DNA of 64,000 nucleotides, from positions 704,001 through 768,000 of the forward strand of contig CAVWPA010000003.1 in assembly GCA_963756875.1 (NCBI GenBank). The letters are read 5' to 3'. Below the pieces are notes generated by a model. It saw only the letters and a program-made list of their open reading frames with translations, was not told where the DNA came from and made no database searches. A program made the translations under genes and the position numbers. The DNA comes from an uncultured Verrucomicrobiae bacterium (GTDB taxonomy: Bacteria > Verrucomicrobiota > Verrucomicrobiia > Chthoniobacterales > UBA10450). This document shows, piece by piece, positions 17,108 through 60,229 of this stretch. Numbering within the stretch: the first letter of the stretch is position 1; the number at the start of each line of letters is the position of its first letter.

Positions 17108-17184
17108 GTTAAAAGGGTTACAAAGTTACATCGTTAAAAAAGGCAGAGCCGTTCTAAACCTTGTAACGGTTTTAACTTTTTAAC
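17108..17184. repeat. GTTAMA arrays with inverted counterpart, right of the DUF3303 gene
   Basis: gttaaaagg gttacaaa gttacatc gttaaaaa ... ttgtaacggttttaactttttaac. Confidence 0.75.
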
Positions 17185-18367: not shown

Positions 18368-18549
18368 CTTGAATGGCAGATTACGCGGATTTAAACCGAT
18401 AGCCAAAGAAGGAATTTGAAATGAGAGCCACCGCAAGCGGGGGGACGAAGTCCGGCGACAACTGTTTTTGTGGACCTCGTATTAACATTTGTCCGAAAAA
18501 TCCCTTGCCAGCCTGTGAATAACTAGTTAATAACTTCCCGGCGATTACC

Positions 18550-19300
18550 TTGACCCACGCTGAACTTCGCAGCCTTGCCCTGGCCGTTCTCGCGGCTTTC
18601 ATCGCAATCATTCTCGCTTCGTGCGAAACGACTTCGCGCGCTTTGCCGCAGTACCGAAGCCGCTCTGACAAAGACCGAATTTCAGAACGTTCGCACCACG
18701 GCCTACACCGACACAGAGGCCGACCACCGACCGTACAGCAATCACAACGCATTGGGCGGCGAGCTTCACGCGGCCGGGCCGGCGATCCATCGCGCTGAGA
18801 ATGTCGCGCCGGCGATTGCGGTCGGTCTCGAGGAGCAATCGGATTATCAGCGTGTGTCGAACTCCGGCGTGCGGCTGCAGCCCTTTTCCGCCGAAGAGCG
18901 AACGACTACGACGCGCGTGACAACAAGACGCGCAACCAGAACGAGACGCGGTGCGAGACGCGCCGGGGCGGTTTCAAGAACGCCGCGCATCGGGAGCGCC
19001 GCTGCCGATTGGTCGCGCTGGCCGGTGGGAACGACGTTCCGGTTGCTCTCGACCGGGCAAGTTTATCGCGTTGACGATTACGGCTGGGCGCTAAGCGGCC
19101 GTAACACGATCGACCTCTACATGGCCAACCAGCGCGAAATGAATTCGTGGGGCGCGCGGCAGGAACCGATCCAGATTCTGAAATGGGGCGATCCGGGACA
19201 AAGCCTGCAGTTCCTCCAATCGCACCAGAACTACAAGCACATCAAACGGATGGTGCTCGAGCTCGAAGGCCGCGACCGGGAAGCCGCCGCGCTGCAATAG
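18550..19300 (+). CDS. 3D-domain lipoprotein; one frameshift near 18654 (probable extra C)
   Basis: Lipobox ILASC in the 18550 frame joins VRTTAYT..SAAADWSRWPVGT..VDDYG.AL.G.NTIDLY in the 18575 frame. Confidence 0.8.
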
Positions 19301-19361
19301 CCGCCTGCAACTTGTTGCGGTCCCCGCTTAAGGGGAGTCCGGACGCATATGATCCTCTGGA

Positions 19362-19426
19362 AATCCGCGGTATCCGTGTAATCCGCGGTTATTTTGAGAG
19401 ATCCTTCGACTTCGCTCAGGATGACA
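19362..19426. repeat. 9-mer ATCCGYG repeats followed by a GTCATC-family half element that overlaps the tdh stop
   Basis: aatccgcggtatccgtgtaatccgcgg, then gagatccttcgacttcgctcaggatgaca. Confidence 0.65.
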
Positions 19427-20468
19427 GAGGGCTCCAATCGAGGACGATTTTGCCGGAGTTGCCGGATTTCATCAGCTCGATGGCTTCCTTGAACTGCGTG
19501 TAGGGAAACCGGTGAGTGATGACCGGCGAGATATCGAGGCCGGACTGGATAAGCGCGGTCATTTTGTACCAGGTCTCGTACATCTCGCGACCGTAAATTC
19601 CCTTGATGGTGAGCTGGTTGAACACAACCAGGTTCCAGTCGATCGCAGCGCTGCCGGGCATGATGCCTAACAAAGCGATTTTTCCGCCGTGAAACATATT
19701 CGGCAGGATGTCGGCGAATGCTTTTGGATTGCCGGACATTTCCAGCGCCACGTCGAAGCCTTCTTTCATGCCGAGTTTTTGCATGGCCTCCGGCACATTC
19801 TGGCTGCGCACGTCGACGCCCACAACATTCGGCGCCATTTTACGGGCGAGATCGAGACGATACGGATTGACGTCGGTGATAACGACGTGCCGCGCGCCGG
19901 CGTGCTGGCAAATCGGAATCGCCATGCAACCGATGGGCCCGGCGCCGGTGATGAGCACATCTTCGCCGACGAGATCGAACGTGAGCGCGGTGTGCACGGC
20001 GTTGCCCAGCGGATCGAAACAGGAGAGTACATCGAGCGAAATCGACGGATCGGCATGCCAGCAGTTTGATTGCGGGATGGCCACGAACTCCGCAAAGGCG
20101 CCGGGGCGATTCACGCCTACGCCCTGTGTATTTGGGCAAAGATGCCGCCGGCCGGCGAGGCAATTGCGGCAATGTCCACAGGTGATATGACCTTCGCCAA
20201 CCACGAGATCGCCGGACGCGAAGCCTTTGACATGGTCGCCCACGGAGTCGACCACGCCGACGAATTCATGGCCAATGGTCATGGGGACGGGGATGGTTTT
20301 CTGCGCCCAGGCGTCCCAGTTATATATATGTACGTCCGTGCCGCAGATCGACGTTTTCACGACGCGGATGAGGACGTCGTCGCCATCGGCCCTGGGAACC
20401 GGGACATCCTCGAGCCAGAGCCCCGGCTCGGCTTTCGCCTTCACCACGGCTTTCATCGTTTTCTGCAC
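19416..20468 (-). CDS. tdh: L-threonine 3-dehydrogenase
   Basis: [57 protein letters not shown]. Confidence 0.96.
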
Positions 20469-43529: not shown

Positions 43530-44393
43530 TTAGCCGGGTGCGAAAACACGGAGCGAGCGCTGGCGAACACAAAACTCGACCGGACAATTGCCCATCAGTT
43601 CGCCATCGACTTCGACCGGCACTTTTTCGGCGCTTGTTACGCGCAGGCGCTGCGTTTGAAAATATTCGATCTCCGGCGTGTTAATCTCGGAGCTGAATAC
43701 CACATCCTGGAGATATTTGATGATCTCGAGATAACCGAGTCGCTTGAAAATGACGACGTCCAACAGACCATCGTCGATCACCGCGTGTTTGAAAAAAGGA
43801 AATGGCCCGCCGTACAAACGCCCGTTCCCGATCAAGACGAACGAACCTTCATTAATGGAGGCATTTTCCGATTCAATAAACAGTCGGGGTGGTTGACGCG
43901 CTGCGATCTGCGCCGCTGAAATCAGATAGCTGAGCGGCCCAAAATTTTCTCGCAACCGGGTGCTGGTTTCCTTGACGACCTGAGCGTCGAGACCCACTCC
44001 AGCCAGCTGAACAAAGTATTTCCGGTTTGCACTCGGAAGATCGACCAGGCGTGTGTTCTCGCCTTGAATGATGTTCCAACAAAGCTCGAGATTGTTGCCA
44101 GGCAGTCCGAGTTCCATGGCGAAGACGTTCATCGTGCCGATTGGCAGCAGCCCCAGCGTGGCATTGCTTCCAGCCAGGCCGTTGACCACTTCGTTCACTG
44201 TGCCGTCCCCCCCAGCTGCGACAATCCGCTGGACCCCTTCCCGCGCCGCCCGGCGTGCCAGGCCCTCGGCCTCACCGGACCGCGACGTGGAGCGAACAAC
44301 GGCGCCCTTGGCAAGCGATTCGACGCGTTCGCGTCTGCGCCGGGCGCGCTGGCCATGCGCGGCAGGATTAAGAATAACAAGCGTGCGAGTCAC
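43530..44393 (-). CDS. Soluble diacylglycerol/sphingosine kinase-family lipid kinase (YegS/BmrU-like)
   Basis: ILNPAA, AAGGDGTVNEVVNGL, LPIGTMNVFA, GVGLDA, YGG, VEVDGE. Confidence 0.92.
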   Translation of the reverse strand: MTRTLVILNPAAHGQRARRRRERVESLAKGAVVRSTSRSGEAEGLARRAAREGVQRIVAAGGDGTVNEVVNGLAGSNATLGLLPIGTMNVFAMELGLPGNNLELCWNIIQGENTRLVDLPSANRKYFVQLAGVGLDAQVVKETSTRLRENFGPLSYLISAAQIAARQPPRLFIESENASINEGSFVLIGNGRLYGGPFPFFKHAVIDDGLLDVVIFKRLGYLEIIKYLQDVVFSSEINTPEIEYFQTQRLRVTSAEKVPVEVDGELMGNCPVEFCVRQRSLRVFAPG

Positions 44394-44444
44394 GGGACTT
44401 TACAATTTCTTTTCTTCGAACTTGAGCTGGGTAACGTTCTGCAC

Positions 44445-45996
44445 GTGCAAAGACTCATCCGAATCATCCTGATCGTTCTCGGAGGATTGTCGATCTTCGC
44501 CGTGGTTCTTTTACTCGGGATGAATTTGTATGTGCAATCGCAGGGCACTCAAGCGCGGATTAGGCAGGAACTGAGCCAGCGTCTCGGCACGACACTGCAT
44601 ATTCAGCGAACCAGCGTGACGCCATGGGGAGGTCTTAAATTAAGCGGCATCGCCGTTCCGCAAGCTCCCGGTTCAACACAAGCTTCGGCGAATTTTCTCG
44701 AGGCGAAATCGTTCGGACTGCGAGTCAGGATCTTTTCGCTCTTTTCCCGGCGTCTCGTCGTTACAAATGTCTCGCTGATTGACCCGAAGGTGATCTGGCC
44801 GCAGGACCAGGATGGGAAATGGAGGCTGCCGGGTGCGGAGGAGGAAAAATTCGAAGCTGCGGCCAGGACAGGTGAAGCAGTCGAGGAATCACCCACGCCA
44901 AGGTCGACTGCAGAAACAGTTGCACCTTTGAAGCCGGCTCACGCAACGGCTTCTTTTTCCAAGCGTGCAACCAACAGGAAATTTACGTTTGTTCCGGACG
45001 TTCGACGTCTGAAGGTGGCGGGCGGCGATTTTCGATTTTTGGATCGGTCCGGAAACCTTGTCGCTGCTTTCGAAGACGTTGGATTTCGTTCCAGCGTTCG
45101 CAACTCGGTTGATCTGGACGGTCGCGTTACGGTTGAAAAAATTTCGATTCGCGATCGCTTTTTCCTGGAGAAGCTGACGTCTCCGCTGCGTTATCAGCCG
45201 GGTAAGCTGGAGTTGTCGAAGATCTCTGCGCAAGCCGGCGGCGGCGACATCATGGGCCATTTCTCCATGCAGCCGCAAACCGCGGATTCGCCGTTCACAG
45301 TGGAAGTAAAATTTCGCAAGGTCCCTGTCGATCGCATCATCATCGAGGCAGGCGGCCCGCGCGGACTCGTCCAGGGTGAGATTGAAGGCAGCTTGCAAGC
45401 AGCAGGGAAAGCTGCCGATCCGAACGCGCTGGTCGGAAATGGTGAAATTCTCTTGAGGAATGGAGAGGTCCGGCAATACAGCCTGCTCGTCGCACTGGGC
45501 CAGATTTTGCAAATCGAGGAGCTAAAGCAGCTTCATCTTGAGGAGGCGGAAGCCAAATATCACATGACTCCCGGCCTCGTTACCGTGGACGAACTGATTT
45601 TGCGCTCGCAAAATATCCGGCTTTCCGCAACCGGCACGATCAGCTTTGCCGGCAAATTGCACCTCGATTCGCGGCTTGCCATAGACGAAAAAATTCGCGC
45701 CCGGCTTTTTAAGCCGATTCGGGTGAATTTTCAGCCAATCGATGAACCCGGATACTCGGCGGTCGATTTCCAGGTGACCGGGTACGATCAAACGGCCAAA
45801 AACGAACCTGCTTAAAAAAGTGGTTGGGCACGATCTGGAGGATTTGTTCGGTCGTTTCCTGGGCGGAAAGAAGGCGCGCCCGAAGAGGAACAAGTCCGAA
45901 GTTGTATCGCCGGCCGAGCCGCCCACTCCATCGCCGGCACCCAGTCGGGCCAGCGATGCAACCGAAGCTGCGGTTACGCCGAGTCCTTCGCCATGA
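44445..45996 (+). CDS. AsmA-like protein; frameshift near 45780 (extra G)
   Basis: N-terminal TM segment and beta-rich body; removing one G gives VTGTIKRPKTNLL.. and a TGA at 45996 overlapping the rsmD ATG. Confidence 0.75.
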
Positions 45997-46544
45997 GAGT
46001 GATCGCCGGTAGCGCCGGCGGTGTCAGGTTGTCTGTTCCCAGAACCGGCGTCCGCCCGACCATGGATCGGGTCAAGGCGGCCATTTTTTCCAGTTTGGGT
46101 GACACGGTCATCGGCGCGCGAGTTCTCGATCTTTTCGCGGGCAGTGGCGCGCTGGGCATTGAAGCACTCAGTCGGGGCGCTTCGTTTGCGCTCTTTGTAG
46201 ACGACGATCGGCAATCCATCGTGACGATTGAACAAAATCTGGCCAGGACCGGCCTTCAAGGGCAGTTGCGGAAACAAGACGCATTCATCTTCCTGCGCGG
46301 CATGACTTCGGGCCAAAAATTCCGGATCATTTTTGCCGATCCGCCGTACCATCAGACAGTCTCCGGGGTTTCCATTACAAAAAAACTACTGACCTGCGCA
46401 AAGCTGCCTGAAATACTGGAACCAGGTGGGCTTTTTGTTCTGGAAAAACATCCCGCGGAGAAAATGCCGGACGCGCCGTTCTGGAAGGTGCGCCGCGCAA
46501 AAGTCTATGGTGCAACTCAAGTTTTATTTCTTGAGAGCGCGTGA
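45993..46544 (+). CDS. rsmD: 16S rRNA m2G966 methyltransferase
   Basis: MRVIAG..RPT.DRVK.AIFS, VLDLFAGSGALGIEALSRGA, IFADPPY. Confidence 0.95.
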   Translation: MRVIAGSAGGVRLSVPRTGVRPTMDRVKAAIFSSLGDTVIGARVLDLFAGSGALGIEALSRGASFALFVDDDRQSIVTIEQNLARTGLQGQLRKQDAFIFLRGMTSGQKFRIIFADPPYHQTVSGVSITKKLLTCAKLPEILEPGGLFVLEKHPAEKMPDAPFWKVRRAKVYGATQVLFLESA

Positions 46545-46574
46545 GGTTTCGTGCTGATGGAGCCGCGCGGCCGC

Positions 46575-47879
46575 ATGTTTCGTTTTCTCTATAATTTGCT
46601 TTGGCCCGTCGGCCTTCTCCTTTTTTTGCCGGGCTATCTGATCAAAATGTTTCGGCGCGGCGGCTATCGGTCAAAATTCGGTCAGCGTCTCGGATGGTAC
46701 GATTCCGAAGTGCGCCGGCGGCTGGCACGGCAAAAATCGACCTGGCTGCACGCAGTCAGCGTTGGGGAAGTAGGAATCGCGCTCAAGCTCGCTGCGGAAA
46801 TGCGCGTTCTACAACCCGATCTGCAATGCATCCTGACTACGACCACGACAACCGGGTTCGCGTTTGCCAGTAAAAATGCGCTGCCATGGATCGAGGTAAT
46901 GTACAACCCGCTCGATTTTTGGCCGATCATGCGACGCGCATTTTCGGTGTTGAAACCGGCGAAAATCGTTCTGGTCGAAGCTGAGATCTGGCCGAACCTC
47001 GTGGCGGAGGCGCATGCTCATGGAATTCCAATTGCGTTGGCGAACGCGCGTCTCTCTCCGCGATCGGAGCGGAGATTTCGCCGTTTTCGACAGTTCGTTA
47101 CGCCTACTTTTCGTCTTCTTGATCTGATTTGTGTGCAGGAACCGGAGGATGTCGATCGCTGGGCTGCGCTGGGCGTCGATCGCTCCCGTATCCATTGCAC
47201 CGGCAGTATCAAGTTCGATCCGGGCAACATTTCTCTCGATCCAACGCTCGCGTGCAATGTTCTCCGCGAGTTCGAGATCGACGCAAACCGGCCGATCCTT
47301 TTGGGCGGAAGCACGCATTCCGGCGAGGAGGAAATTCTGGCCAGCATTTTCATGGAACTTCGCTCTCAGTTTCCGGGGTTGTTCCTCGTGATCGCTCCGC
47401 GCCATGCGGAGCGCGGACGAGAAGTTCAACGCAGTCTTAAGCAACTCGGCTTGCGCGTGGTATTGCGCACTCAGCCCATCGCTGATGCGGCGTCCGATTG
47501 CCTGATTCTTGATAGCACCGGTGAACTGCGAAACTGGTATGCTGCGGCGACAATCGTGTTCGTGGGGAAGAGTCTTACCGTCCATGGAGGGCAAAACCCG
47601 GCCGAAGCCATCGCCGCGGGTAAGCCGGTCTTATTTGGGCCTCACATGGAGAATTTCGCCGCGCTCGCGCGATCGCTTGTCGAACAGAAAGGCGCGATAC
47701 AGGTCGAAAACAAGAAGGGGTTGAAAGAAGCAATTTCCACTCTGCTGAACGACGAAAATCGCCGCGAAAAGTTGAGCCAGGATGCGCATCGAGTCCTCGA
47801 AAAGCACCGCTACGCGACGGCGCGCGCCGCGAAGCTGATTAATTATCTCGCGGCCCGGGCTGAAAACCCCGCAGGCTAG
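46575..47879 (+). CDS. waaA: Kdo transferase
   Basis: WLHAVSVGE, EAEIWPN, NARLS, GSTHSGEE, APRHAER, DSTGEL, GGQNPAE. Confidence 0.95.
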   Translation: MFRFLYNLLWPVGLLLFLPGYLIKMFRRGGYRSKFGQRLGWYDSEVRRRLARQKSTWLHAVSVGEVGIALKLAAEMRVLQPDLQCILTTTTTTGFAFASKNALPWIEVMYNPLDFWPIMRRAFSVLKPAKIVLVEAEIWPNLVAEAHAHGIPIALANARLSPRSERRFRRFRQFVTPTFRLLDLICVQEPEDVDRWAALGVDRSRIHCTGSIKFDPGNISLDPTLACNVLREFEIDANRPILLGGSTHSGEEEILASIFMELRSQFPGLFLVIAPRHAERGREVQRSLKQLGLRVVLRTQPIADAASDCLILDSTGELRNWYAAATIVFVGKSLTVHGGQNPAEAIAAGKPVLFGPHMENFAALARSLVEQKGAIQVENKKGLKEAISTLLNDENRREKLSQDAHRVLEKHRYATARAAKLINYLAARAENPAG

Positions 47880-48011: not shown

Positions 48012-48087
48012 GACCCTATCGTCCAGAGGCCTAGGACACCGCCCTTTCACGGCGGTAACACGGGTTCGAATCCCGTTAGGGTCGCCA
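48012..48087 (+). tRNA. tRNA-Glu (TTC)
   Basis: Acceptor stem GACCCTA/TAGGGTC plus GCCA; anticodon arm ccgcc-ctTTCac-ggcgg; T-arm GGTTCGAATCC. Confidence 0.97.
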
Positions 48088-49589: not shown

Positions 49590-50618
49590 ATGCAGACGGC
49601 TTTCTTTCAATCTGGCCTTGAACATCCGCATGGCGGTCGCGCACGCGCCATCATCAAAACGCATCCGGAAGTCCGGGAATTGATGGTGCGCAATCCATAC
49701 ACGGCCCTGATCACGCTGTCACTCCTGGTCCTGCAAACAGCGATTGCATACGGGATGGGAAAACTCGGGTTCGGTTACTGGTGGCTCAGCTTGCTGGTGG
49801 CGTATTGCCTGGGCGCGTTCGCCAATCATGCCAACTACGTCATCATTCATGACGCGACGCATAATCTCATTTTGCGGAGCAAAAGCTGGAATAAAATGAT
49901 CGCGATTATCGCCGATCTTCCCAATTTAACGCCCGGTGCCATGGGCTTTCGGGTTTATCATTTAAAGCACCACTCGCATCAGGGTGATTACGAGCACGAT
50001 GCCGACCTGGCAAATCTCTGGGAGGCGCGTCTGGTGAGCAACATTTGGTATCGCAAGGCGCTCTGGTTGATGCTATTCCCGTTTTTCCAGTTGACGCGCC
50101 CTCCGCGTTTGAAGGCGATTACCATGTGGGACAGGTGGTTCGTCGTGAATTTCGTGTGCGTGGCCGCTTATGACACGGCTGTCGTTTATTTCTGCGGCTG
50201 GGCCGGGTTTTTTTATCTTGCGTTGTCGTTTCTTTTCTCGATCGGTCTGCATCCGGTAGGCGCGCGCTGGATCCAGGAGCATTACACGAACGATCCGGAG
50301 CAGGAGACCTACAGTTATTACGGACCAATCAATCGAGTTTGCCTCAACATGGGATACCACAACGAGCATCACGATTTGTCCTCGATTCCCTGGAATAATT
50401 TGCCGAAATTGCGGGCCATGGCGCCGGAGTTCTACGAGAATTTGAAATATCATCCGTCGTGGACCCGTTTGCTTTTTCAATTCATCTTCGACAAGCGCTA
50501 CAGTTTATTCTCGCGCATCGAACGAATGAAACAGCCCGCGCCCGAGGCGCAAGCCGCCCAATCGATTGTCGATCTTGGAGGCCATGAAGTTGTTAACGCG
50601 GAGGCAATCAATGCCTGA
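49590..50618 (+). CDS. Sphingolipid delta-4 desaturase/C4-hydroxylase-like (DEGS/DES family)
   Basis: N-terminal HPH..R..IIK.HPEVRELM; His boxes HDATH, HLKHH, HNEHHD; GLHPVG..IQEH; ETYSYYGP.N..N.GYHNEHHD..IPW..LP as in DEGS1. Confidence 0.85.
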   Translation: MQTAFFQSGLEHPHGGRARAIIKTHPEVRELMVRNPYTALITLSLLVLQTAIAYGMGKLGFGYWWLSLLVAYCLGAFANHANYVIIHDATHNLILRSKSWNKMIAIIADLPNLTPGAMGFRVYHLKHHSHQGDYEHDADLANLWEARLVSNIWYRKALWLMLFPFFQLTRPPRLKAITMWDRWFVVNFVCVAAYDTAVVYFCGWAGFFYLALSFLFSIGLHPVGARWIQEHYTNDPEQETYSYYGPINRVCLNMGYHNEHHDLSSIPWNNLPKLRAMAPEFYENLKYHPSWTRLLFQFIFDKRYSLFSRIERMKQPAPEAQAAQSIVDLGGHEVVNAEAINA

Positions 50619-51234
50619 ACCGGCGAAACGATTCTACGTTTCGAACAAGAACGAGAGCGTGCCGATGTTCGAAAGTAAGTTCATGGAGTTTTTTTCCCAC
50701 ATCCATCCGGCGACACCGGTGATTTTGTATGTGCCGGTGATCGTTTACCTGCTCTACCGCGCGCTCGCGCCGGGGCAAATGCCGATCCTGGCGGTGATGG
50801 TGCTTTTCCTGATTGGCGTCCTCATGTGGACGCTGTTGGAGTACATGGTCCACCGTTATGTTTTTCATTACGAACCGAAAAGCCGGCCGGGTAAGGCTTT
50901 GCACTTCATCATTCACGGCGTGCACCATGATTATCCGAACGATGCGAGCCGCCTTGTTTTGCCACCCGTGATTAGTGTCCCGATGGCGGTTCTATTTTAC
51001 TTCTTGTTTGCTTTCACTTTTGGGCAATTTGCCCCGGCCATTTCGGCTGGTTTTGGGACGGGCTACGTTTGCTACGACATGATTCACTACGCTACGCATC
51101 ATTTTCCGATGCGAAGCAGGGTCGGTCTTTGGCTCAAACAGTATCATCTGCGCCATCATTACAAAGACGACGAGGCCGGCTTCGGCGTTAGCTCTCCCCT
51201 GTGGGACTATATTTTTGGGACCACCCGAAAATAG
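50611..51234 (+). CDS. Fatty acid 2-hydroxylase-like (FA2H/Scs7 catalytic domain, no cytochrome b5 domain)
   Basis: WTLLEYMVHRYVFH, HFIIHGVHHDYPND..RLVLPP, GYVCYDMIHY..HH, YHLRHHY, FGVSSPLWD..FGT. Confidence 0.85.
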   Translation: MPEPAKRFYVSNKNESVPMFESKFMEFFSHIHPATPVILYVPVIVYLLYRALAPGQMPILAVMVLFLIGVLMWTLLEYMVHRYVFHYEPKSRPGKALHFIIHGVHHDYPNDASRLVLPPVISVPMAVLFYFLFAFTFGQFAPAISAGFGTGYVCYDMIHYATHHFPMRSRVGLWLKQYHLRHHYKDDEAGFGVSSPLWDYIFGTTRK

Positions 51235-51463: not shown

Positions 51464-52744
51464 ATGGATCAGGAAGGGGAATATCAACCGACGATGAGCC
51501 AGGACCCCTTCAAGCTTAGTCTCAGTAATTTCCTGGCCGCCGAGAGCAGCGATCCGCTGCAGGCTCCGCAAAGTTTCACAAATTGGGTGCGCGAGAGCGC
51601 GTGGGCCCGCGAATTGTACGAGCCCGAACTTCTTGGAACGGCGGACGCGCGCACGACGATCAATTACGATGGCAAGCCGGTCTCGGTTATCAATTTTTGT
51701 TCCTACAACTATCTTGGTCTGGCCAATCACCCGGAGGTTATTGCCGCCGCCCATCAGGCGCTCAGCACCCACGGCCTTGGCGCCTGCGGCGCGCCGATGC
51801 TCTCCGGCATGACCGATCTGCACCGGGAGCTGGAGCGGCGCGTTGCAAAATTTCTCGGGCGTGAAGACGCGATGCTTTTCAACAGCGGGTTCGGAGGGGC
51901 GCTCGGGACAATCTCTGGATTTCTTCGCAAGAGCGACGTCGCCATTCTCGACAATCGATCCCATCTCAGTCTCCGGGACGGCGCGATCCTGTCACGCTGT
52001 CGTACGGAAAAATTTGAACATAACGATCCAGAGTCGCTCGATACCGCGTTGAGCCGGCAACGCAATCGCCGTCAGCTTGTCGTCGTGGAAGGCATCTATT
52101 CCATGGATGGCGATTTCGGAAATCTGCAGGAATTGATCAGCGTCGCAGATTTGCACGGAGCCAGCGTTTTCGTCGACGAAGCGCACTCGATGTTGGGTTG
52201 TGGCGAAAACGGTCGGGGCGCGGCCGAAAAGTTCGGCGTGGAGCATCGGATTCCGCTCATCTACGGGACTTTTTCGAAGGCGTTTGGAGCCCTGGGTGGA
52301 TTCGTGGCCGGCTCGAAGGAGACTCTCCAATACCTGCGCTTTTACGCCCATCCCTACGTTTATTCTTGCGCCTTGCCCCCGGTGGTGGTGGCGGGAATTC
52401 TCAAAGCACTCGAGATCGGCATGCGGCAACCAGAGTTGCGAACACAACTTTGGGAGAATGCCGATTATTTTCATGCGCAACTTCGCGGTCTCGGCATCGA
52501 TACCGGGAAATCGACAACCTATATCATGCCGATCGTGATCGGGGAACGCGAGCGCATGTATCGCCTGGGCCATGAGCTGCGCCGGCGCGGTTTGTGGGTT
52601 GCACCGGTGGATTATCCGGCCGTGCCGTTGAATCGAGTCTGCTTCCGGGCCTGCGTTTCCGCCAAACACACGCGGGCTGACCTCGACGAAGCGCTCAATA
52701 TTCTCGAGGACACGCTGGTTCCGGCTGCGCTCCAAAGCGCCTGA
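51464..52744 (+). CDS. spt: Alpha-oxoamine synthase, probable serine palmitoyltransferase
   Basis: NFCSYNYLGL, VEGIYSMDGD, VDEAHS, GTFSKAFG (PLP Lys); specificity inferred from the neighbouring genes. Confidence 0.78.
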   Translation: MDQEGEYQPTMSQDPFKLSLSNFLAAESSDPLQAPQSFTNWVRESAWARELYEPELLGTADARTTINYDGKPVSVINFCSYNYLGLANHPEVIAAAHQALSTHGLGACGAPMLSGMTDLHRELERRVAKFLGREDAMLFNSGFGGALGTISGFLRKSDVAILDNRSHLSLRDGAILSRCRTEKFEHNDPESLDTALSRQRNRRQLVVVEGIYSMDGDFGNLQELISVADLHGASVFVDEAHSMLGCGENGRGAAEKFGVEHRIPLIYGTFSKAFGALGGFVAGSKETLQYLRFYAHPYVYSCALPPVVVAGILKALEIGMRQPELRTQLWENADYFHAQLRGLGIDTGKSTTYIMPIVIGERERMYRLGHELRRRGLWVAPVDYPAVPLNRVCFRACVSAKHTRADLDEALNILEDTLVPAALQSA

Positions 52745-52760: not shown

Positions 52761-53714
52761 ATGGTAATGCCGGAGCAGATTGATTTGCCGCTTTCTCCAT
52801 TGGAAGCGACCTACAAGACGCGTGACGTAGAGGGGATTGTCGATCTTTACTTTTATCGCAAGATCGCGTTCCGCCTGGCGCAGCTTTTCGCCAAACTGAA
52901 GATGACGCCGACGACGGTGACGCTTCTGGGCGGCGTTTTGGGCATCGCCGCCGGGCATTTGTATTTTTATCGCAATCTGCGCCTGAATGTTGTCGGGATG
53001 GTTCTACACATTTGCGCCAATGTGTTTGACAACGCCGATGGTCAGCTCGCGCGGCTGCTGAACCAAAAGAGCAGAACTGGTCGTGTAATCGATAGTCTGG
53101 TTGATCACGTAATATTCCTGAATATTTACGTCCATCTGATGCTGCGATGTTTGGTGGAAGGGGCATCTCTCACCGTCTGCCTGCTGGCCCTTGGCGCGGG
53201 AATCAGTCACGCATTGCAGGGCGCAGCCGCCGATTATTTCCGGAACGCCTATCTTTATTTTGTGAAAGGCCGATCCCGCGCGGATTGGGATTGCTCCGCC
53301 GTGTTGCGGAACGATTATCGCAGACTGAACTGGCGCACCGAGGGTTGGAACAAGTTTCTCCTTGCCACCTATCTGAATTTTACCCGACAACAGGAGCTGC
53401 TGTCGCCCAAGCTGAAACAATTGCGTGACGCGACAGTGCATGATTTTGCCGACGAGATTCCAGGTTCATTACGGGGCCATTATCGGGATATCGCTCGCCC
53501 GATGCTTCGAGGGTGGGGGTTGTTAATGACGAACACGCGCATGTTTTTTCTGTTCCTTTTCCTGGCCATCGACCGGCCCATCTGGTACTTTTGGCTCGAA
53601 GTCAGCGTTTTCAATCTTCTCCTGATTTACTTGATTTTCCGACAGGAAAAAATGGCGCGCGCCTTTCTTGAGCACCCTTATCGGGCGGCAGAAGTAACAA
53701 CAGGCGTGTCTTAA
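52761..53714 (+). CDS. CDP-alcohol phosphotransferase family protein 1
   Basis: DLYFYR..TPTTVT; signature DNADGQLAR..S..GRVIDSLVD. Confidence 0.9.
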   Translation: MVMPEQIDLPLSPLEATYKTRDVEGIVDLYFYRKIAFRLAQLFAKLKMTPTTVTLLGGVLGIAAGHLYFYRNLRLNVVGMVLHICANVFDNADGQLARLLNQKSRTGRVIDSLVDHVIFLNIYVHLMLRCLVEGASLTVCLLALGAGISHALQGAAADYFRNAYLYFVKGRSRADWDCSAVLRNDYRRLNWRTEGWNKFLLATYLNFTRQQELLSPKLKQLRDATVHDFADEIPGSLRGHYRDIARPMLRGWGLLMTNTRMFFLFLFLAIDRPIWYFWLEVSVFNLLLIYLIFRQEKMARAFLEHPYRAAEVTTGVS

Positions 53715-53718
53715 TTCC

Positions 53719-54846
53719 GTGGCGGAAATTGAAATCTCGCAAGTCAGCTCGCATCGTGACCGCGATGCCTTCATTAAGTTTCCCTGGCGCATCTACCGGA
53801 ATGATCCGGCCTGGGTCCCACCGTTAATTATTGAGCGGAAGGCGTTCCTCGACCGGACGAAGCATCCGTTTTACAAACATGGCGACGCCGCCCTGTTTCT
53901 GGCGAAGCGCAGCGGCGAAATCGTCGGTCGAATCATGGCCAGCGACGATCCGCGTTACAACGCGCTCCACGAAACGAACGTTGGCTGTTTCGGTCTCTTC
54001 GAGTGCATCGACAGTCGCGAGGTCGCGGCCGCCTTGTTCGCGGCCGCGGGTGATTGGCTGCGCGCCCGGGGACGCAGCGAGATGATGGGACCGATCGATT
54101 ACTCGACCAATTATGTTTGCGGGTTACTCATCGACGGATTTCAATATCCGCCCACGATCCTTACCTCACACAATCCGCCCTATTACGCTGGCTTGATCGA
54201 AGGCTGCGGCTTTACGAAAGCCAAAGATTGGTACGCCTGGTGGTTTTCGGAGTTTCCCGCTCCGGCGGAACGGTTGCGGAAGATTGCCGTTGCGCGGGCG
54301 GGAAAAATCGGGGTCAAGATTCGACCGATCAAGGTGAGAAAGATCGAAGACGAAGGCCAACGCATCCGGACGGTTTACAATCAGGCTTGGCAGAAGAATT
54401 GGGGGTTTGTCCCCTTTACAGAAGCTGAATCCGAACACATGGCGAAGGAAATGAAGCCGCTGATTCATCCCAAGGGAACATTGATCGCGGAGATCGGCGA
54501 TGAACCCGTCGGCTTTGTTATCGGTGTGCCGGACATCAACGTCGCATTTCGCCGTATCGATGGTCGACTGACTTGGTTTGGTTTGCCGATTGGCTTGATT
54601 AAGCTGCTTTACTACAGATTGAAAATCCGCACCGGCCGGCTCATTGCGCTTGGTGTTGTGGAAAAGTACCGCCGAGCGGGCATCGCCGAAATGCTTGTCC
54701 TTGCTTTGATGGATGCATCGTTCAAACGCGGGTTTACTGGCGAGTTAAGCATGACGCTCGAAGACAATGTCATGGTCAATCGCTTCATCGAAGCAATGGG
54801 CGCGTCGCGATACAAAACGTATCGAATCTACAGCCGCGCTCTGTGA
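53719..54846 (+). CDS. GNAT-fold protein, probable bacterial ceramide synthase (bCerS/YghO-like)
   Basis: FIKFPW.IY.NDP.WVPPL..HPF..VGRI..FGLFEC..GP..STN..GLLIDGF..HNPPYY..N.AW..NWGFVP..PDIN..LGV..YR..G. Confidence 0.75.
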   Translation: MAEIEISQVSSHRDRDAFIKFPWRIYRNDPAWVPPLIIERKAFLDRTKHPFYKHGDAALFLAKRSGEIVGRIMASDDPRYNALHETNVGCFGLFECIDSREVAAALFAAAGDWLRARGRSEMMGPIDYSTNYVCGLLIDGFQYPPTILTSHNPPYYAGLIEGCGFTKAKDWYAWWFSEFPAPAERLRKIAVARAGKIGVKIRPIKVRKIEDEGQRIRTVYNQAWQKNWGFVPFTEAESEHMAKEMKPLIHPKGTLIAEIGDEPVGFVIGVPDINVAFRRIDGRLTWFGLPIGLIKLLYYRLKIRTGRLIALGVVEKYRRAGIAEMLVLALMDASFKRGFTGELSMTLEDNVMVNRFIEAMGASRYKTYRIYSRAL

Positions 54847-56060
54847 TCAGAGAAACTTCTGCGTTTGTTATCCTGGCTGATGAATCGGCCGACTGGAAAA
54901 TTGCAGGCCTGCGCCAACTGGAACGGCTGGTTCTTGCCATTAATGAATTGCGCGACTCCAGCTCGACGGAAGCGCAGCTCGACATTGTTGTCTTTTGGAA
55001 ACCAGAGATTCCGTCTTCAAAGCGCTGGTTGCCGCGAAGCACGGCGGGTATTCGCCTTTTTGACAATAACAAGCGACAGCCTGATTTCGGTGCGCGTATT
55101 TTATCGACGCGATTGCTAGTTGGCCGCGCTGCTCTCCCGGAGTTCATCGCCAATGTGCCCTGTGTTGGAGCCGTAGCGCCAACCATGGATGAATGCCGGC
55201 TTTGGAAGGAGTCCTGGCATGACTTCGAAGTCGCTTGTCAGCGAGCTCTGACCGGGAAGAAGGTTTCACCAGCCTGGCAATACCTCAATGCTTCGGACGA
55301 AATTCCACGGTCGGAGAAAGCATTTCTCCGTCGAGTTGGAAAACCGCAGGATGGAATTGTCTCGCGTTTCATTAATCGACCGATCTCCCGAACGATCACG
55401 CGCGTTTTACTTCGTTCCCAAATAACTCCGGCTGCGTGGACAATATCGATGCTGGTCGTGCCGGTTGCTGCCTTCTTCGTGCTGCGTCGCGGAGATTACT
55501 TCGCTTTCGTAATCGGTCTCGCCATTTTTCAGTTATACAGCGTTCTGGACGGTTGCGATGGCGAAATTGCGCGGGCCAAGTATTTGGAATCGGAGAAAGG
55601 CGGAAGACTCGATACCTGGACGGATATTTTTGGTGGATTCATTTTCATCTTTGGCCTTGGATATGGCCTGTATCGGAAGCATTCCGGCGCCGCGAACGCC
55701 TGGCATTATGTCACACAAGCGATTGCCTGCGTGCTGCTTATCGGAATCAATGAGTGGCGGTTGCGGGGCCGGAGGAGCGAACGAAATGCTCCGCCGGATG
55801 ATTTGATTCCGACTTTATATCCGCGACATAAGGAGCTGATTCATCATTCGGGAATTCTGTTGCTGGGCGAGAGACTTGTGTGGTGGTTGGTTCAGTTTAC
55901 GAAGAGAGACATCTCCATTTTTGTCTTTTTTCTTCTGGCGATCGTTTCCCGTCCGGAATGGATCCTTCCGCTATGGATCGCCGTGACCGCCGTAGTATTG
56001 GTGCTGGCCGAGATCGCGCGGTGGAAACGTGCGCATTCGTCATTGGGTGGACCCCGATGA
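54843..56060 (+). CDS. CDP-alcohol phosphotransferase 2 (DIPPS-like) with a divergent N-terminal domain
   Basis: K..DGIVSRFINRPISR..Q..SVLDGCDGEIARAK..S..GG.LD...D. Confidence 0.85.
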   Translation: MIRETSAFVILADESADWKIAGLRQLERLVLAINELRDSSSTEAQLDIVVFWKPEIPSSKRWLPRSTAGIRLFDNNKRQPDFGARILSTRLLVGRAALPEFIANVPCVGAVAPTMDECRLWKESWHDFEVACQRALTGKKVSPAWQYLNASDEIPRSEKAFLRRVGKPQDGIVSRFINRPISRTITRVLLRSQITPAAWTISMLVVPVAAFFVLRRGDYFAFVIGLAIFQLYSVLDGCDGEIARAKYLESEKGGRLDTWTDIFGGFIFIFGLGYGLYRKHSGAANAWHYVTQAIACVLLIGINEWRLRGRRSERNAPPDDLIPTLYPRHKELIHHSGILLLGERLVWWLVQFTKRDISIFVFFLLAIVSRPEWILPLWIAVTAVVLVLAEIARWKRAHSSLGGPR

Positions 56061-56123: not shown

Positions 56124-57074
56124 ATGGAGTCCACCTTGGCTCAAGATATTGCGCCCGTCTCCCGGCCGATTGGGCCCGGTCTGTCTTTCCGTCTCCGCTA
56201 CAGTCCTTTTTTAGCACAGATGGTGGTGATCCGGCGTTGCAATCTCTCCTGTGGATATTGCTCTGAGTACGACAAATCGAGCGATCCGGTGCCGATCGGA
56301 TTGCTGGAAACCCGGCTGCGCAAGTTGAAGGAACTCGGCACATTCGGCATTTCACTCACTGGTGGCGAACCGACACTGCACCCGGAACTGCCTCGTCTCA
56401 TTCGCATGTGCCGGACCCTGCGTTTCTTTCGCACCGGTATGATTTCAAACGGTTTCTTTTTGCGCCCGGAAATGATTGAAACGCTGAACCAGGCCGGGCT
56501 CCAGGAAATGCAGATTTCGATTGATGGTGTGCATGGCAATGACACAACGCAGAAAGTTCTGAACAACCTCAAGAAACGCCTTCGCTGGCTGCGGGAGCAT
56601 GCCCGTTTTCAAGTTTTCGTTAGCGCGGTCATCGGCGCGTGCCCGCCGGAAGAAGCGGAGGAGGTCGTCTCGTTTGCGACCGAGATGGGCTTCGCCTGGC
56701 GTGTTCTTCTTGTGCATGACGAACATGGTCAGCTCAAACTGAAGAGTGACGAGGTGAAAGCCTTCCGGAGCATCGTGAAAAAACTTCCGAAAAGTTTGAG
56801 GGAGCTTTCCGACTATCGTGAGCGCCTGATCCGTGACGGCACGGCGCCATACAAGTGTCGGGCCGGGAGCCGATATCTTTACATCGATGAATTCGGTAAC
56901 GTGAATTGGTGCTCACAAACCCGTCGCGTTTGGTCCAAGCCCTTGATGGATTATGGGCTGAACGATCTGCGGGAACAGTTCTATCGCTACAAATCCTGTC
57001 ACGCGACCTGCACTCTGGGATGCGTGCGGTCTGCCAGCCAATTGGACAACTGGCGCAAACAATCCGCCGCCTAG
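56124..57074 (+). CDS. Radical SAM protein with SPASM/twitch-like C-terminal cysteines
   Basis: CNLSCGYC, TGGEP, ISNG, ISIDG; C.AG..YLYID..G.V..C..CHATCTLGC. Confidence 0.92.
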   Translation: MESTLAQDIAPVSRPIGPGLSFRLRYSPFLAQMVVIRRCNLSCGYCSEYDKSSDPVPIGLLETRLRKLKELGTFGISLTGGEPTLHPELPRLIRMCRTLRFFRTGMISNGFFLRPEMIETLNQAGLQEMQISIDGVHGNDTTQKVLNNLKKRLRWLREHARFQVFVSAVIGACPPEEAEEVVSFATEMGFAWRVLLVHDEHGQLKLKSDEVKAFRSIVKKLPKSLRELSDYRERLIRDGTAPYKCRAGSRYLYIDEFGNVNWCSQTRRVWSKPLMDYGLNDLREQFYRYKSCHATCTLGCVRSASQLDNWRKQSAA

Positions 57075-57087
57075 CCGAAAATATTTC

Positions 57088-57867
57088 TTATCGCCGTTCG
57101 GGCAGCGCCTGGGCCCGCGTCTGCAACACCCTGGCCGCTTGCTGGAGCATCTGCGGAGTGTCGACGTCCTGCCACCAAGCATCGCCGATATCCGTGGCGC
57201 GGACCTTTCCGTCGGCAGCCATCAAGCGGACACCGTCAGCCAGGCTGCAATCTCCATTGCTCTTGGCGCGTGCGAGATAATCGAAGATCTGGGCGGGGCA
57301 GACGAACAACCCGGTGTCGATTCCATCGTAATGTCGTAGTTCTTTTCCAATAGCGACAATGCGTTCGCCGCGGGTCTGGACTTTCATCGCATCCGCCAGA
57401 TCGAAAATAGAATCGATTTTTCGGTCGACTGCCAGATTGAGCTGGTCGAGATCGGGACTTTTCAGGAGAAGGTCGATGACGGTCTGGTCAAACAAATGGT
57501 CGCTCATGGTCAAAAGAAACGGAGGTTTGACGTGATGAGCGGCGGCAAGAACCGAGATGCCATTCTGTTTTTGCCACTCGCTATTCTTGATAAAACGCAC
57601 TTCCAGTGCGGGCGGTGCCAATCGACTTACCGCAGCGCTCAAACGTTCGGCCTCAAATCCTACCACGGCATTGATTCTCTTGATTCCGGCCCGGGCCAGG
57701 GCGTCGATCGTGTAGGAAATGAGCGGTCGGCCAAGCAGTGGAACCAACGGCTTCGGGAAGGTCGGATCCGCGCCGCGCAACCGGGAACCGGATCCAGCCA
57801 TCAAAATCACTGCCTCAGTAACCAGCCTCCGTTCGAGCGAAGCGGCCGATCCTGGAAGGCTTGTCAT
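57088..57867 (-). CDS. NTP transferase resembling inositol-1-phosphate cytidylyltransferase (IPCT/LicC-like)
   Basis: AVILMAG.GSRL..PKPL, NGISVL, LLTMSDH, K....IGKEL..YD.IDTGLF, W.DVDT. Confidence 0.82.
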   Translation of the reverse strand: MTSLPGSAASLERRLVTEAVILMAGSGSRLRGADPTFPKPLVPLLGRPLISYTIDALARAGIKRINAVVGFEAERLSAAVSRLAPPALEVRFIKNSEWQKQNGISVLAAAHHVKPPFLLTMSDHLFDQTVIDLLLKSPDLDQLNLAVDRKIDSIFDLADAMKVQTRGERIVAIGKELRHYDGIDTGLFVCPAQIFDYLARAKSNGDCSLADGVRLMAADGKVRATDIGDAWWQDVDTPQMLQQAARVLQTRAQALPERR

Positions 57868-58667
57868 ATTCCGTAATACCGCTTCAGGCCCCAAAGGCGA
57901 ACGCGCTGGGGAAGAAATCGAAAGATGAGCGGCGCAATTTTGGATTGAAACGTGTCGCCTACGGTGATGCGCGGGGGTGGATTTGCTGCGTCGATCAACT
58001 TCAGAACATTCTTTGCGACCAGTTCCGGTTCCGGGGCCGCCTTCATGTTGCGATCTACGACGGTCCAGGTCCTAACCACTTTCGCTTCATAGCGCGGATT
58101 GGATTGCGCACTCTTGCTGACTGCATCGTTGAAGGCGGTGCAAATATCGCCGGGCTGGAGATCGACAATGCGCACTCTCGAATCGCCCAGTTCGAGCTGC
58201 ATAGACATGGTGAAGGCTGCCATCGCTGCCTTGGCGGCGTTGTAGGCCGCCATGAATGGAACGGGCAAACGCGAAGCCAGAGACGTCACGTTGACGATGA
58301 GGCCTTCCCCTCGCGCTTGCATCGCGTTGAGGGCCAGACGCATCAACTGCAGGTGTCCGAACACGAGCACCTGAAATTCGCGCGCCGTTTCCTTCGCAGA
58401 AAGATCTTCCGCCGGCCCGAAGTGACCGCTGCCGGCATTGTTGATAACAACATCAAAATGACCGGCTTCCGAAAGCGCGGTTGTAAACGCCTCGTCGATT
58501 GAATGGGAGTCGGACAGATCGAGCCGTACCGCGTGCAAGCGTGGCAGTTGCGGGACGCGACCAGGTTCTCGCGAGGTCCCCCAGATCTCATCTCCACGGT
58601 TGACAAGCGCTTGGGCAATGGCCAGGCCGATTCCGGAACTGGCGCCTGTGAGAAAAATGGGTTTCAT
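57864..58667 (-). CDS. Classical short-chain dehydrogenase/reductase
   Basis: TGASSGIG, INNAG, NVTS, YNAAK. Confidence 0.92.
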   Translation of the reverse strand: MKPIFLTGASSGIGLAIAQALVNRGDEIWGTSREPGRVPQLPRLHAVRLDLSDSHSIDEAFTTALSEAGHFDVVINNAGSGHFGPAEDLSAKETAREFQVLVFGHLQLMRLALNAMQARGEGLIVNVTSLASRLPVPFMAAYNAAKAAMAAFTMSMQLELGDSRVRIVDLQPGDICTAFNDAVSKSAQSNPRYEAKVVRTWTVVDRNMKAAPEPELVAKNVLKLIDAANPPPRITVGDTFQSKIAPLIFRFLPQRVRLWGLKRYYGI

Positions 58668-60229
58668 GAATGACGTTGGATTAAAAACAGCTGCAGAAAA
58701 TGGTGCTTGCTGTGGACGATTACCGAGCGGTCAAATTCGGCCAATGGTACCCGCTGCCAGCCTGCGGGTAACGGCAGATGCGCATCATCGGTATAAACGG
58801 CGACTGAGTTTTCAAGAGCTTGCGGCAAATCGCCCGGAGGCGGCACATCGCGAAACGTTTTGAATTCGGGTGCATACCACTCGGCATGTGGTACGGCATG
58901 GAGAAAGAGCAGCGCCACATTTTTGCGTTGTGAGGGTGGATAGAGCTGCATGAGATAGTGGACCATCCGTGCCGATGGCGGTTGTTCGCGATGGTTTTGG
59001 ATTACGTTTGGGATTGCGATATAAAGGAGCAAAATGGGAAGGGCCAGCGCCGTCCAATTCCACGGGGTGCGCATTTGCAGAAAGCCTCGCAGTATCGCCA
59101 CTAAAAGGAGAGGAAAAATAAGTATGTAGTACCGAGCAGTGCCACCGAGACAGACAAAAATGATCGCAATGTAGATCAGCGCCCACGGCGCGTGAAATTT
59201 CCAGAAAAGCCGGTCTTGCAGATCCCGGGGCCCGAGGATGTAGGCAGCGAATCCCCCGACGATCATCGCGATTCCAATTGCCAGTGTGACCGGCGATTGC
59301 AGAAATCCGAAACCGAGTCCGAACCAGCCGAGAAGGAAGTGTTCGGCGAAACGCGTCGCCAAATAATGAGCGCTCCAATTTCCCGCCCCGATGAAGGTAT
59401 GCGGCTTGTCCAGGCGCCACTGCCATTGGCCGTAGACAAGTTTTGGATAAACAAGCCACGCGGGAACATCAGGTCGCAAACGCGCCTGCAAATACCACAT
59501 CGGCAACAGCCACACTAGGCAGCTCGCGATCAAAACGCCCACGGCCAGGATAGATATCTTCCAGCGAGCATGTCCCATCTTTAACGCCGCGATGAGAATG
59601 ACGATGACAATCAGAATCAATTGAGGTCGCGCGCCGCTAGCAGCGGCTCCGCATAAGGACGCGCCCAACAAAGCGGCCACACTCCGGCGCTGCCAAAAAC
59701 AAATTGCCGCGAAAATCTCCAAACTCAGGAATCCTGCCGCGAGACTATCTGTCATAATTTTCGTCGCCGTCAGCCAAACGGCAGGCATAACCGAGAGGCA
59801 CGCAGCTATCCACCACGCCAAGCGCTCGTTGAGCTGAGATCGGATGATAAGAAACCATGCCGCAATGAAAAGTGCGCCGCCCACACACGACACGAGATGC
59901 AAAGAAGTTTGAGGACTGAGTCCCAAGCCCCTGGTGCCAATCCAGCCGAAGAAAATAAAAAGCGGATACCCCGGTGGATGCGGTTGATTGTTCCAGAGAT
60001 TAAATGCGCGAACACCCATGGCGAAGTTTACGGAATCGAATTCGTCAAGGCCGGCAGAACGTGTCAGCAGGTAAACTACGAACATCACCACAAAGATGGC
60101 GGCGGCTTTGACCGCCGTTTCGTAATCAACCCGGTTTGCGGCAAGCGCGCCGTTCCCTGCTTGAGATTTGTGAAGAATTCGCTGGCCCATCTTCCCACCG
60201 AATCTTCTCGATGCGAGCCGATTCGACAA
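58664..60229 (-). CDS. Polytopic membrane protein, GT-C (ArnT/PMT/DUF2723-like) glycosyltransferase candidate
   Basis: First loop LDEFDSVNFA..PHPPGYPLF, many TM segments, GARPQ; the start codon is uncertain. Confidence 0.65.
   Translation of the reverse strand: MSNRLASRRFGGKMGQRILHKSQAGNGALAANRVDYETAVKAAAIFVVMFVVYLLTRSAGLDEFDSVNFAMGVRAFNLWNNQPHPPGYPLFIFFGWIGTRGLGLSPQTSLHLVSCVGGALFIAAWFLIIRSQLNERLAWWIAACLSVMPAVWLTATKIMTDSLAAGFLSLEIFAAICFWQRRSVAALLGASLCGAAASGARPQLILIVIVILIAALKMGHARWKISILAVGVLIASCLVWLLPMWYLQARLRPDVPAWLVYPKLVYGQWQWRLDKPHTFIGAGNWSAHYLATRFAEHFLLGWFGLGFGFLQSPVTLAIGIAMIVGGFAAYILGPRDLQDRLFWKFHAPWALIYIAIIFVCLGGTARYYILIFPLLLVAILRGFLQMRTPWNWTALALPILLLYIAIPNVIQNHREQPPSARMVHYLMQLYPPSQRKNVALLFLHAVPHAEWYAPEFKTFRDVPPPGDLPQALENSVAVYTDDAHLPLPAGWQRVPLAEFDRSVIVHSKHHFLQLFLIQRHS

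Follow-up and report, generated by a model that had tools for sequence, protein, structure and literature searches.

The sphingolipids of bacteria are, in the textbook view, saturated dihydroceramides. The classic decorations of eukaryotic ceramides are the work of the DEGS family, which includes both 4-desaturase and C4-hydroxylase activities (DEGS1/DEGS2), and of the acyl 2-hydroxylases typified by yeast Scs7p and human FA2H; cytochrome b5 is the eukaryotic electron donor for these enzymes. Here we describe a DEGS-type gene (DES) and an FA2H/Scs7-type gene (FAH) that overlap in a 64,000-nucleotide stretch of DNA, hereafter called the window (positions 704,001 to 768,000 of contig CAVWPA010000003.1, assembly GCA_963756875.1), from an uncultured soil Verrucomicrobium related to Candidatus Udaeobacter. 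Udaeobacter-type Verrucomicrobia are among the most abundant soil bacteria and, DEGS-type and FA2H-type enzymes both being already recognized in bacteria, what the pair adds is an ecologically weighty lineage. Our reading, to which we assign a probability of roughly 0.7, is that DES and FAH are oxygen-dependent membrane di-iron enzymes that would tailor the ceramide of the gene cluster lying downstream of them, independently of cytochrome b5.

Among the described systems that come closest, the plant hydroxylases FAH1 and FAH2 also lack a b5 domain and borrow a separate b5, and functional b5-less FA2H homologs with conserved His motifs, tied to sphingolipid formation, are reported from myxobacteria (Ring, Schwar and Bode 2009), both as given in the available part of PMC10002949. 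On the side of the head group, the accessible text of Heaver et al. 2022 (PMC9246714) describes a putative and still unconfirmed CDP-inositol lipid cluster in Bacteroides vulgatus and Prevotella, in which a nucleoside triphosphate (NTP) transferase and a CDP-alcohol phosphatidyltransferase are encoded near myo-inositol-1-phosphate synthase (MIPS). No characterized bacterial DEGS-type enzyme was found in the literature searched, which lay mostly outside subscription journals, and co-mentions of Udaeobacter and sphingolipids were judged, by titles and term counts, to be incidental.

Two enzymes of the DEGS and FA2H families

DES matches the Pfam families FA_desaturase (PF00487; E 4.3e-26, 92.7 bits) and, at its N terminus, Lipid_DES (PF08557), with 28.1 bits against a cut-off of 23 (31.9 bits in a six-frame search). 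It has three His boxes (HDATH, residues 87-91; HLKHH, 124-128; HNEHH, 257-261), and in a 36-sequence alignment that includes the DES1-like protein of Mya arenaria, H87, H91, H124, H127, H128, H257, and H260 are invariant and H261 is nearly so. A search of 1.84 billion cluster representatives returned 2288 clusters at E<=0.001 and 391 at E<=1e-30. Organism names were attached to 4 of the 30 representatives looked up, all of them eukaryotic (Mya arenaria DES1-like, Diaphanoeca grandis, Auanema sp., and Gnathostoma spinigerum), and DES is 34-37% identical to these four; the Mya protein (P0310) aligns by BLASTP with 36% identity over 305 residues (E 3e-68; E 5e-58 in the cluster search). A sequence search of the Protein Data Bank (PDB) with DES matched no solved structure, and the PDB copy searched contains no DEGS structure. 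The AlphaFold model of DES (predicted local distance difference test [pLDDT] score, 92.1) is nearest to desaturase-like chains of the algal FtsHi complex (template modeling [TM] scores of 0.59-0.62), then to AlkB (0.52) and SCD1 (0.33-0.34), at 11-15% identity throughout, a resemblance that, at the level of the model, is to the general membrane di-iron fold. We therefore place DES, on its profile matches and motifs, among the homologs of DEGS-type sphingolipid desaturases/C4-hydroxylases and predict an activity of that kind.

DES would act at C4 of the sphingoid base of (dihydro)ceramide, where it would either introduce the 4,5 double bond, which we slightly favor, or add a 4-hydroxyl group. 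Were DES instead of the DEGS2 kind, a C4-hydroxylase or a bifunctional enzyme in which hydroxylation predominates, the product would be a phytoceramide-type, yeast-like inositol-phosphoceramide. Such a role is consistent with the coexistence of both activities in the DEGS family and with the JGI name of the relatives of DES, "sphingolipid 4-desaturase/C4-monooxygenase"; furthermore, the genome holds one PF04116 gene in total, FAH, and hence no separate Sur2-type C4-hydroxylase, and the inositol-phosphate head group predicted below parallels yeast, whose inositol-phosphoceramides carry 4-hydroxy bases. The named members nearest to DES in the tree are, however, DES1-like, and we regard a predominantly hydroxylating DES as unlikely, though to be kept in view.

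FAH matches FA_hydroxylase (PF04116; E 9e-21) and has four His motifs, HRYVFH, HFIIHGVHH, HYATHH, and HLRHH. Yeast Scs7 provides its only sequence matches in the PDB (4zr1 and 4zr0; phmmer E 8.2e-34 and 2.1e-33), and the alignment, which starts at FAH residue 16, covers residues 182-370 of Scs7, the hydroxylase domain; no cytochrome b5 domain was found in the 207 residues of FAH. The FAH model (pLDDT 76.8) superimposes on Scs7 with a TM score of 0.83, a root mean square deviation of 2.1 Å, and 39% identity, and it keeps the Tyr-Asp pair aligned with Scs7 322-323; in a structure search with this model, four Scs7 chains were the only matches at E<=0.001. Of five longer FAH homologs, four are fusions of Cyt-b5 and FA_hydroxylase (39-42% identity), and the one b5-fused homolog that carries a name is from Eimeria flavescens (P0432, 41%). 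FAH is thus assigned as an FA2H/Scs7-type hydroxylase domain which, as its homology and gene context suggest, would put a 2-hydroxyl on the amide-linked fatty acid.

Since PF04116 spans several specificities, FAH could also be imagined as a Sur2-like hydroxylase of the base or as an enzyme acting on a non-sphingolipid such as ornithine lipid or lipid A. No structure of Sur2 has been solved, and comparison with the PDB therefore cannot rank it; KdtA is encoded two genes upstream. Nevertheless, FAH shares 39-41% identity with Scs7 and the b5-fused FA2H-type proteins across all four His motifs, and an FA2H-specific name (JGI "ceramide fatty acyl 2-hydroxylase") is borne by 37 of the 120 listed close relatives, 18 others having a generic name and 65 none. 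It also stands beside DES and the Spt-like gene in Verrucomicrobiota and Saprospiraceae-type loci and, in the family sample described below, was found only in GNAT-bearing genomes. A role other than acyl 2-hydroxylation is, in our view, highly improbable. One relative has a FAH copy with an in-frame TGA (G425:C2:3108984-3109589), perhaps through decay to a pseudogene or through a sequencing error.

These results bear out the observations of an earlier note on this DNA, which had recognized the first open reading frame (ORF) as DEGS-type by its N-terminal motif and an ETYSYYGP...GYHNEHHD segment, and the second as having FA2H/Scs7 His boxes and no cytochrome b5. Lipid_DES is above its cut-off and the segment occupies residues 239-262 of DES; in FAH, the four motifs are present and the alignment is to the hydroxylase domain alone. 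Both family assignments hold under sequence, profile, and fold tests, and ESM Atlas look-ups agree with them. Neither of the contrary outcomes that the note had named, action on glycerolipid acyl chains or lipid A alone and a grouping with generic desaturases, was seen: DES carries Lipid_DES and lies in the DEGS tree, apart from the three paralogs that, with DES, make up the four PF00487 genes of the genome. The two ORFs had also been described as overlapping by 8 nucleotides (nt), and we read the same coordinates and overlap from the sequence (Table 1).

The start of FAH within the end of DES, preceded by GGAGG, suggests that FAH is probably translated in step with DES. An alternative in-frame ATG at 50584, with which the overlap would be 35 nt, has its GGAGG just 2 nt upstream; because of this spacing, and because 207 amino acids is the length of many FAH relatives and of the database copy P0121, the start at 50611 is the better choice. 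In the protein collection, P0121 is 100% identical to FAH and the best listed match of DES is 84% identical; the start chosen for DES there may be a different one. Around the two genes, promoter- and terminator-like sites are no more frequent than in shuffled sequences, and between FAH and the Spt-like gene we found neither a small conserved ORF nor an Rfam element. In a search of sequencing runs, the best DNA run was a soil metagenome holding 0.26 of the sampled words.

Conservation and linkage to sphingolipid genes

Relatives of DES were found in at least 599 stretches among 185,579 species genomes, of which 585 were confirmed, which puts the number of bacterial species genomes with a DEGS-type gene at 585 or more. 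In the best 80 loci, neighbors were identified by tblastn with the window proteins (at least 50% query coverage, E<=1e-8), and some of these loci are short, which makes the counts lower bounds. A Spt-like gene accompanies DES in 53 of the 80 loci (35/40 in Verrucomicrobiota, 14/17 in Pseudomonadota, 3/17 in Bacteroidota, 1/1 in an Actinomycetota-labelled bin, 0/4 in Ignavibacteriota, and 0/1 in Acidobacteriota), GNAT in 44, and FAH in 39. The link of DES to sphingolipid genes thus recurs in three phyla, and it does so with different gene orders: DES-FAH-Spt-CDP1-GNAT-CDP2 in the Udaeobacter type, Spt-GNAT-DES in Beijerinckiaceae, including the cultured Methylocapsa palsarum NE2, and DES-FAH...Spt-GNAT in the Saprospiraceae type. 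GNAT adjoins Spt-like genes in loci of Verrucomicrobiota, Pseudomonadota, and Bacteroidota alike. The cluster of L013, a contig binned as "Actinomycetes" and probably wrongly so, is of the Udaeobacter type, with 79-84% identity.

Among the matches listed, the closest DES is 92% identical and labelled Chthoniobacterales, and many at 76-80% identity are labelled Candidatus Udaeobacter, Spartobacteria, or Verrucomicrobia. Several Chitinophagales/Bacteroidetes genomes (loci L040 and L044-L046) have a lone DES that is 61-69% identical to verrucomicrobial DES, which suggests transfer between phyla. In the 39 loci with both genes, the exact 8-nt overlap was seen in two (L008 and L009), a 2-nt gap is the commonest junction (16 loci), and the genes are separated by others in seven (992-4370 nt), several start picks at TTG or GTG being uncertain in these counts. 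Compared with the closest relative, L008, the ratio of nonsynonymous to synonymous substitution rates (dN/dS) is 0.063 for DES and 0.084 for FAH (dS 0.71 and 0.91), the other comparisons having dS >1.5 and being less reliable; both genes are under strong purifying selection and are not chance ORFs.

An even sample of 300 other genomes from the phylum gave Lipid_DES matches in 3, two in the own family and one elsewhere; when 120 other genomes from the order were searched, 6 of the 11 own-family members had DES at E<=1e-10, with one weak 27% match elsewhere. In 40 other genomes of the family we found GNAT in 36, DES in 20, and FAH in 19; 14 have both DES and FAH, 6 only DES, 5 only FAH, and 15 neither, and many of these genomes are incomplete, so that a gene not found is not necessarily absent. 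DES and FAH were seen only in GNAT-bearing genomes (20/36 and 19/36, and 0/4 of those without GNAT). Two of the genomes with GNAT and neither DES nor FAH (G414 and G423) are flagged as unpublished, and without them the counts are DES 20, FAH 19, and GNAT 34 of 38. We read these patterns as a core pathway that is near-universal in the family, to which DES and FAH have been added as separate, optional tailoring genes.

Position of DES in the DEGS tree

A first tree (IQ-TREE, quick mode, LG+G4, 156 rows) was rooted on a PF00487 paralog from the own genome, which is attached by a branch 3.67 changes per column long. All 42 named bacterial DES sequences fall in one 47-row clade (Shimodaira-Hasegawa-like approximate likelihood ratio test, 98), and the four named eukaryotes in a separate 52-row clade (99) which, only four of the looked-up tips being named, is mostly unlabelled. 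The window DES forms a group with 11 of the 12 Verrucomicrobiota sequences, for which Chitinophagales sequences are the nearest neighbors (98). Within the bacterial clade, sequences of different phyla are mixed, a pattern suggestive of gene transfer among bacteria; the backbone forks lack support, and we infer from them nothing on the direction in which bacteria and eukaryotes might have exchanged the gene.

In a second tree (FastTree, 234 rows), to which 78 metagenome loci had been added, the clade of the named eukaryotes (89 rows, support 99) also takes in sequences from contigs with plainly bacterial neighbors (two-component systems, an ammonium transporter, ABC transporter parts, and CdaA), a coding density of 0.73-0.91, and a GC content of up to 0.70. 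The eukaryote-like bacterial copies score 42-58 bits with Lipid_DES, compared to 28 bits for the window DES. Judged by these trees and scores, some bacteria hold DEGS genes that are more eukaryote-like than the window DES. The earlier note had held that the gene pair bears on the origin of these enzymes. The window DES, however, is not of the bacterial lineage nearest to eukaryotes and, because other bacterial lineages are closer and DEGS-type genes are widespread in bacteria, the pair says little about the origin of eukaryotic DEGS. In the eukaryote-bearing clade, L112:5851-7634 and a 14-row clade of metagenome loci (L099-L122) are high-GC, with bacterial neighbors and Lipid_DES scores of up to 58 bits; a hemerythrin gene lies convergent to the desaturase gene of L112.

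The surrounding cluster and its predicted product

DES and FAH head a conserved cluster in which five genes on the same strand follow and three on the opposite strand converge on them (Table 1).

Table 1. The DES/FAH pair and the downstream cluster, in window coordinates
Feature	Position	Strand	Remarks
DES (ORF1)	49590-50618	+	ATG 49590 to TGA 50616-50618; 342 amino acids
FAH (ORF2)	50611-51234	+	Starts at ATG 50611; 207 amino acids
DES/FAH overlap, 8 nt	50611-50618	+	ATGCCTGA; FAH start within DES end; read directly from the sequence
GGAGG, Shine-Dalgarno-like	50600-50604	+	6 nt 5' of the FAH start, within the DES coding sequence; putative role
Spt-like alpha-oxoamine synthase	51464-52744	+	426 amino acids; Aminotran_1_2
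CDP-alcohol phosphatidyltransferase 1 (CDP1)	52761-53714	+	PF01066; weak matches to inositol-phosphate-type synthase models
GNAT acyltransferase, candidate bacterial ceramide synthase	53719-54846	+	375 amino acids; Acetyltransf_1
CDP-alcohol transferase 2 (CDP2), DIPPS-like	54843-56060	+	PF01066; NF041135 positions 200-349, E 2.2e-22, below cut-off
Radical SAM protein	56124-57074	+	PF04055; variable cluster member, in 7/40 Verrucomicrobiota loci
IPCT-like nucleotidyltransferase, candidate CDP-inositol synthase	57088-57894	-	NTP_transf_3
Short-chain dehydrogenase/reductase (SDR), 3-ketodihydrosphingosine-reductase-like	57864-58667	-	adh_short
PMT_2-type membrane glycosyltransferase	58664-60229	-	PF13231

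The Spt-like synthase scores 259-316 bits with the NCBIfam Spt models (cut-offs 500-670) and 341 bits with bioF (cut-off 426). The glycine C-acetyltransferase of the genome, Kbl, is a separate gene at 17180-18436 (670 bits, cut-off 493). NF049977 KdsR is the second-best NCBIfam match of the SDR, over its full length (164 bits, cut-off 400), and the best match of the nucleotidyltransferase is the cytidylyltransferase half of IPCT/DIPPS (128 bits, below cut-off). Approximately 5.5 kb beyond the right end of the window lies a MIPS domain (PF01658, 126.7 bits; G000:C3:773516-773842), and its closeness to the cluster supports an inositol-phosphate head group. The product of the cluster is likely an inositol-phosphoceramide whose base is modified and whose acyl chain is 2-hydroxylated: once modified, the ceramide would most likely gain its inositol-phosphate head group by a CDP-inositol route.

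The radical SAM protein has as its best NCBIfam match the tetraether lipid synthase Tes, far below cut-off. Upstream of DES, genes for a YegS/DAGK-type lipid kinase, an AsmA-family protein, and KdtA (43530-47879) keep their order in at least 10 related loci; a ceramide kinase is reported from Caulobacter. A tRNA gene (48012-48084; Rfam, 64.1 bits) lies between KdtA and PFK. Kbl is near a gene of the zinc alcohol-dehydrogenase family (17180-20468), and the two look like a kbl-tdh pair.

The source of electrons

We searched for Cyt-b5 (PF00173) in the own assembly (2.69 Mb, 3 contigs, 87.6% complete) and in five relatives that have both genes (G048, G300, G415, G421, and G442; 94-100% complete), and found it in none of the six genomes. 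Flavodoxin_1 was likewise not found in these six, nor rubredoxin in the own genome, where the sole Fer2 match is the succinate dehydrogenase iron-sulfur subunit SdhB, small 4Fe-4S ferredoxins having been outside the search. One reductase with FAD_binding_1 and NAD_binding_1 domains (405 amino acids) is encoded at about 1.06 Mb on contig 3, without link to the cluster. The lack of b5 in the genomes searched indicates that the eukaryotic donor is unavailable and that another reductant system would feed both enzymes. This lowers the likelihood that DES works exactly as DEGS1 does and leaves its homology untouched. The earlier note had held that the pair bears on the choice of electron donor; this stands insofar as b5 was found in none of the six genomes. 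The four PF00487 desaturase-family genes and the one PF04116 hydroxylase gene of the genome all code for enzymes that need reductant.

Discussion

Several observations weigh against our proposal that DES and FAH tailor the ceramide of the adjacent cluster. The Spt, GNAT, and SDR assignments are all under the curated NCBIfam cut-offs; the Spt, KdsR, and IPCT models being missed by score, the assignments made with them rest on best matches and synteny. Genomes with only DES or only FAH show that the coupling of the two is not obligatory, and we found in DES no sequence feature that decides between desaturase and hydroxylase chemistry. The search of sequencing runs listed no RNA run holding the sequence, and is uninformative on expression. 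Finally, 27 of the 80 DES loci, including 14/17 from Bacteroidota and 4/4 from Ignavibacteriota, lack sphingolipid neighbors, Spt and GNAT alike, and the DES family may therefore have other substrates, though some of the loci are short.

The last point, in particular, raises the question of whether DES acts away from the sphingoid base, for instance on the N-acyl chain of ceramide or on another membrane lipid. Indeed, Caulobacter is reported to hydroxylate the acyl chain of its ceramide with the DesA-family enzyme CC_0202 (Stankeviciute 2022, as cited in the available part of PMC11324152), a PF00487 protein and not an Scs7-type one, and this also counts against our proposal, since PF00487 enzymes can evidently act on the acyl chain; the hydroxylase goes unmentioned in Zik et al. 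2022 (PMC9393093). Lipid_DES, however, was found in 0 of 14 control genomes, Caulobacter vibrioides among them. This species and Bacteroides thetaiotaomicron, both known dihydroceramide producers, are named control genomes of the analysis, and the C. vibrioides genome does match PF00487, as well as PF04116, which places its acyl-chain enzyme in a different subfamily from DES. An acyl-chain role for DES is unlikely, the more so as the Scs7-type FAH is already there and fits that job; moreover, the three other PF00487 paralogs are at hand for ordinary acyl desaturation, and the linkage of DES to Spt and GNAT recurs in three phyla. We consider action off the base, taken as a whole, very unlikely.

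We thus retain the tailoring of ceramide by DES, at C4 of the base, and by FAH, on the acyl chain, as the best account of the pair. As a tentative extension of it, which we hold with less confidence, Udaeobacter-type Verrucomicrobia might make a yeast- or plant-like inositol-phosphoceramide, its base 4-unsaturated or 4-hydroxylated and its acyl chain bearing a 2-hydroxyl, by means of DEGS/FA2H-type enzymes served by a non-b5 donor. In a very abundant soil lineage that is still uncultured, genes for both of the classic eukaryotic ceramide decorations adjoin ceramide genes, and the pair offers a clonable means to ask if bacteria make 4-unsaturated or 4-hydroxy, 2-hydroxyacyl ceramides and which donor replaces the missing cytochrome b5. 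It also raises the question of whether the ceramide pools of soil are partly bacterial. If the tentative extension holds, a large part of the soil-lipidome ceramide that is "eukaryote-looking" could be of bacterial origin, and the pair would constitute a simple bacterial system in which to find a new partner that supplies reductant to membrane di-iron enzymes of lipids.

Comparison with known systems

The two-domain layout, the three His boxes, and the QETYSYYGP...GYHNEHHD segment are common to DES and eukaryotic DEGS1/DEGS2 (Des1), from which DES differs in being bacterial, in belonging to an operon-like cluster, in coming from a genome in which no cytochrome b5 was found, and in falling in a separate clade of the tree. 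Similarly, the hydroxylase domain of yeast Scs7p and human FA2H (PDB 4zr0, 4zr1) aligns end to end with FAH and the four His motifs are kept, whereas the N-terminal cytochrome b5 domain is missing from FAH. In this respect FAH resembles plant FAH1/FAH2, as far as these are described in the source cited above, with the difference that in the six genomes searched no b5 gene was found either. The myxobacterial fatty acid alpha-hydroxylases, compared here by their description, are from another phylum, and the part of the source available describes no DEGS-type partner for them.

The predicted logic of the cluster is like that of Spt, CerS/bCerS, and CerR in Caulobacter crescentus, as presented in the accessible portion of PMC11324152: a Spt-like enzyme, an N-acyltransferase, and a reductase, together with hydroxylation of the acyl chain. 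The head group in Caulobacter is phosphoglycerate, in contrast to the inositol phosphate predicted for the window cluster. The latter matches, in the portion of the Bacteroidetes work cited above, the layout of the putative CDP-inositol cluster, with its NTP transferase, CDP-alcohol transferase, and nearby MIPS; relative to that layout, no HAD hydrolase was seen in the window, while two CDP-alcohol transferases are embedded within the ceramide cluster and DES and FAH are present at its head.

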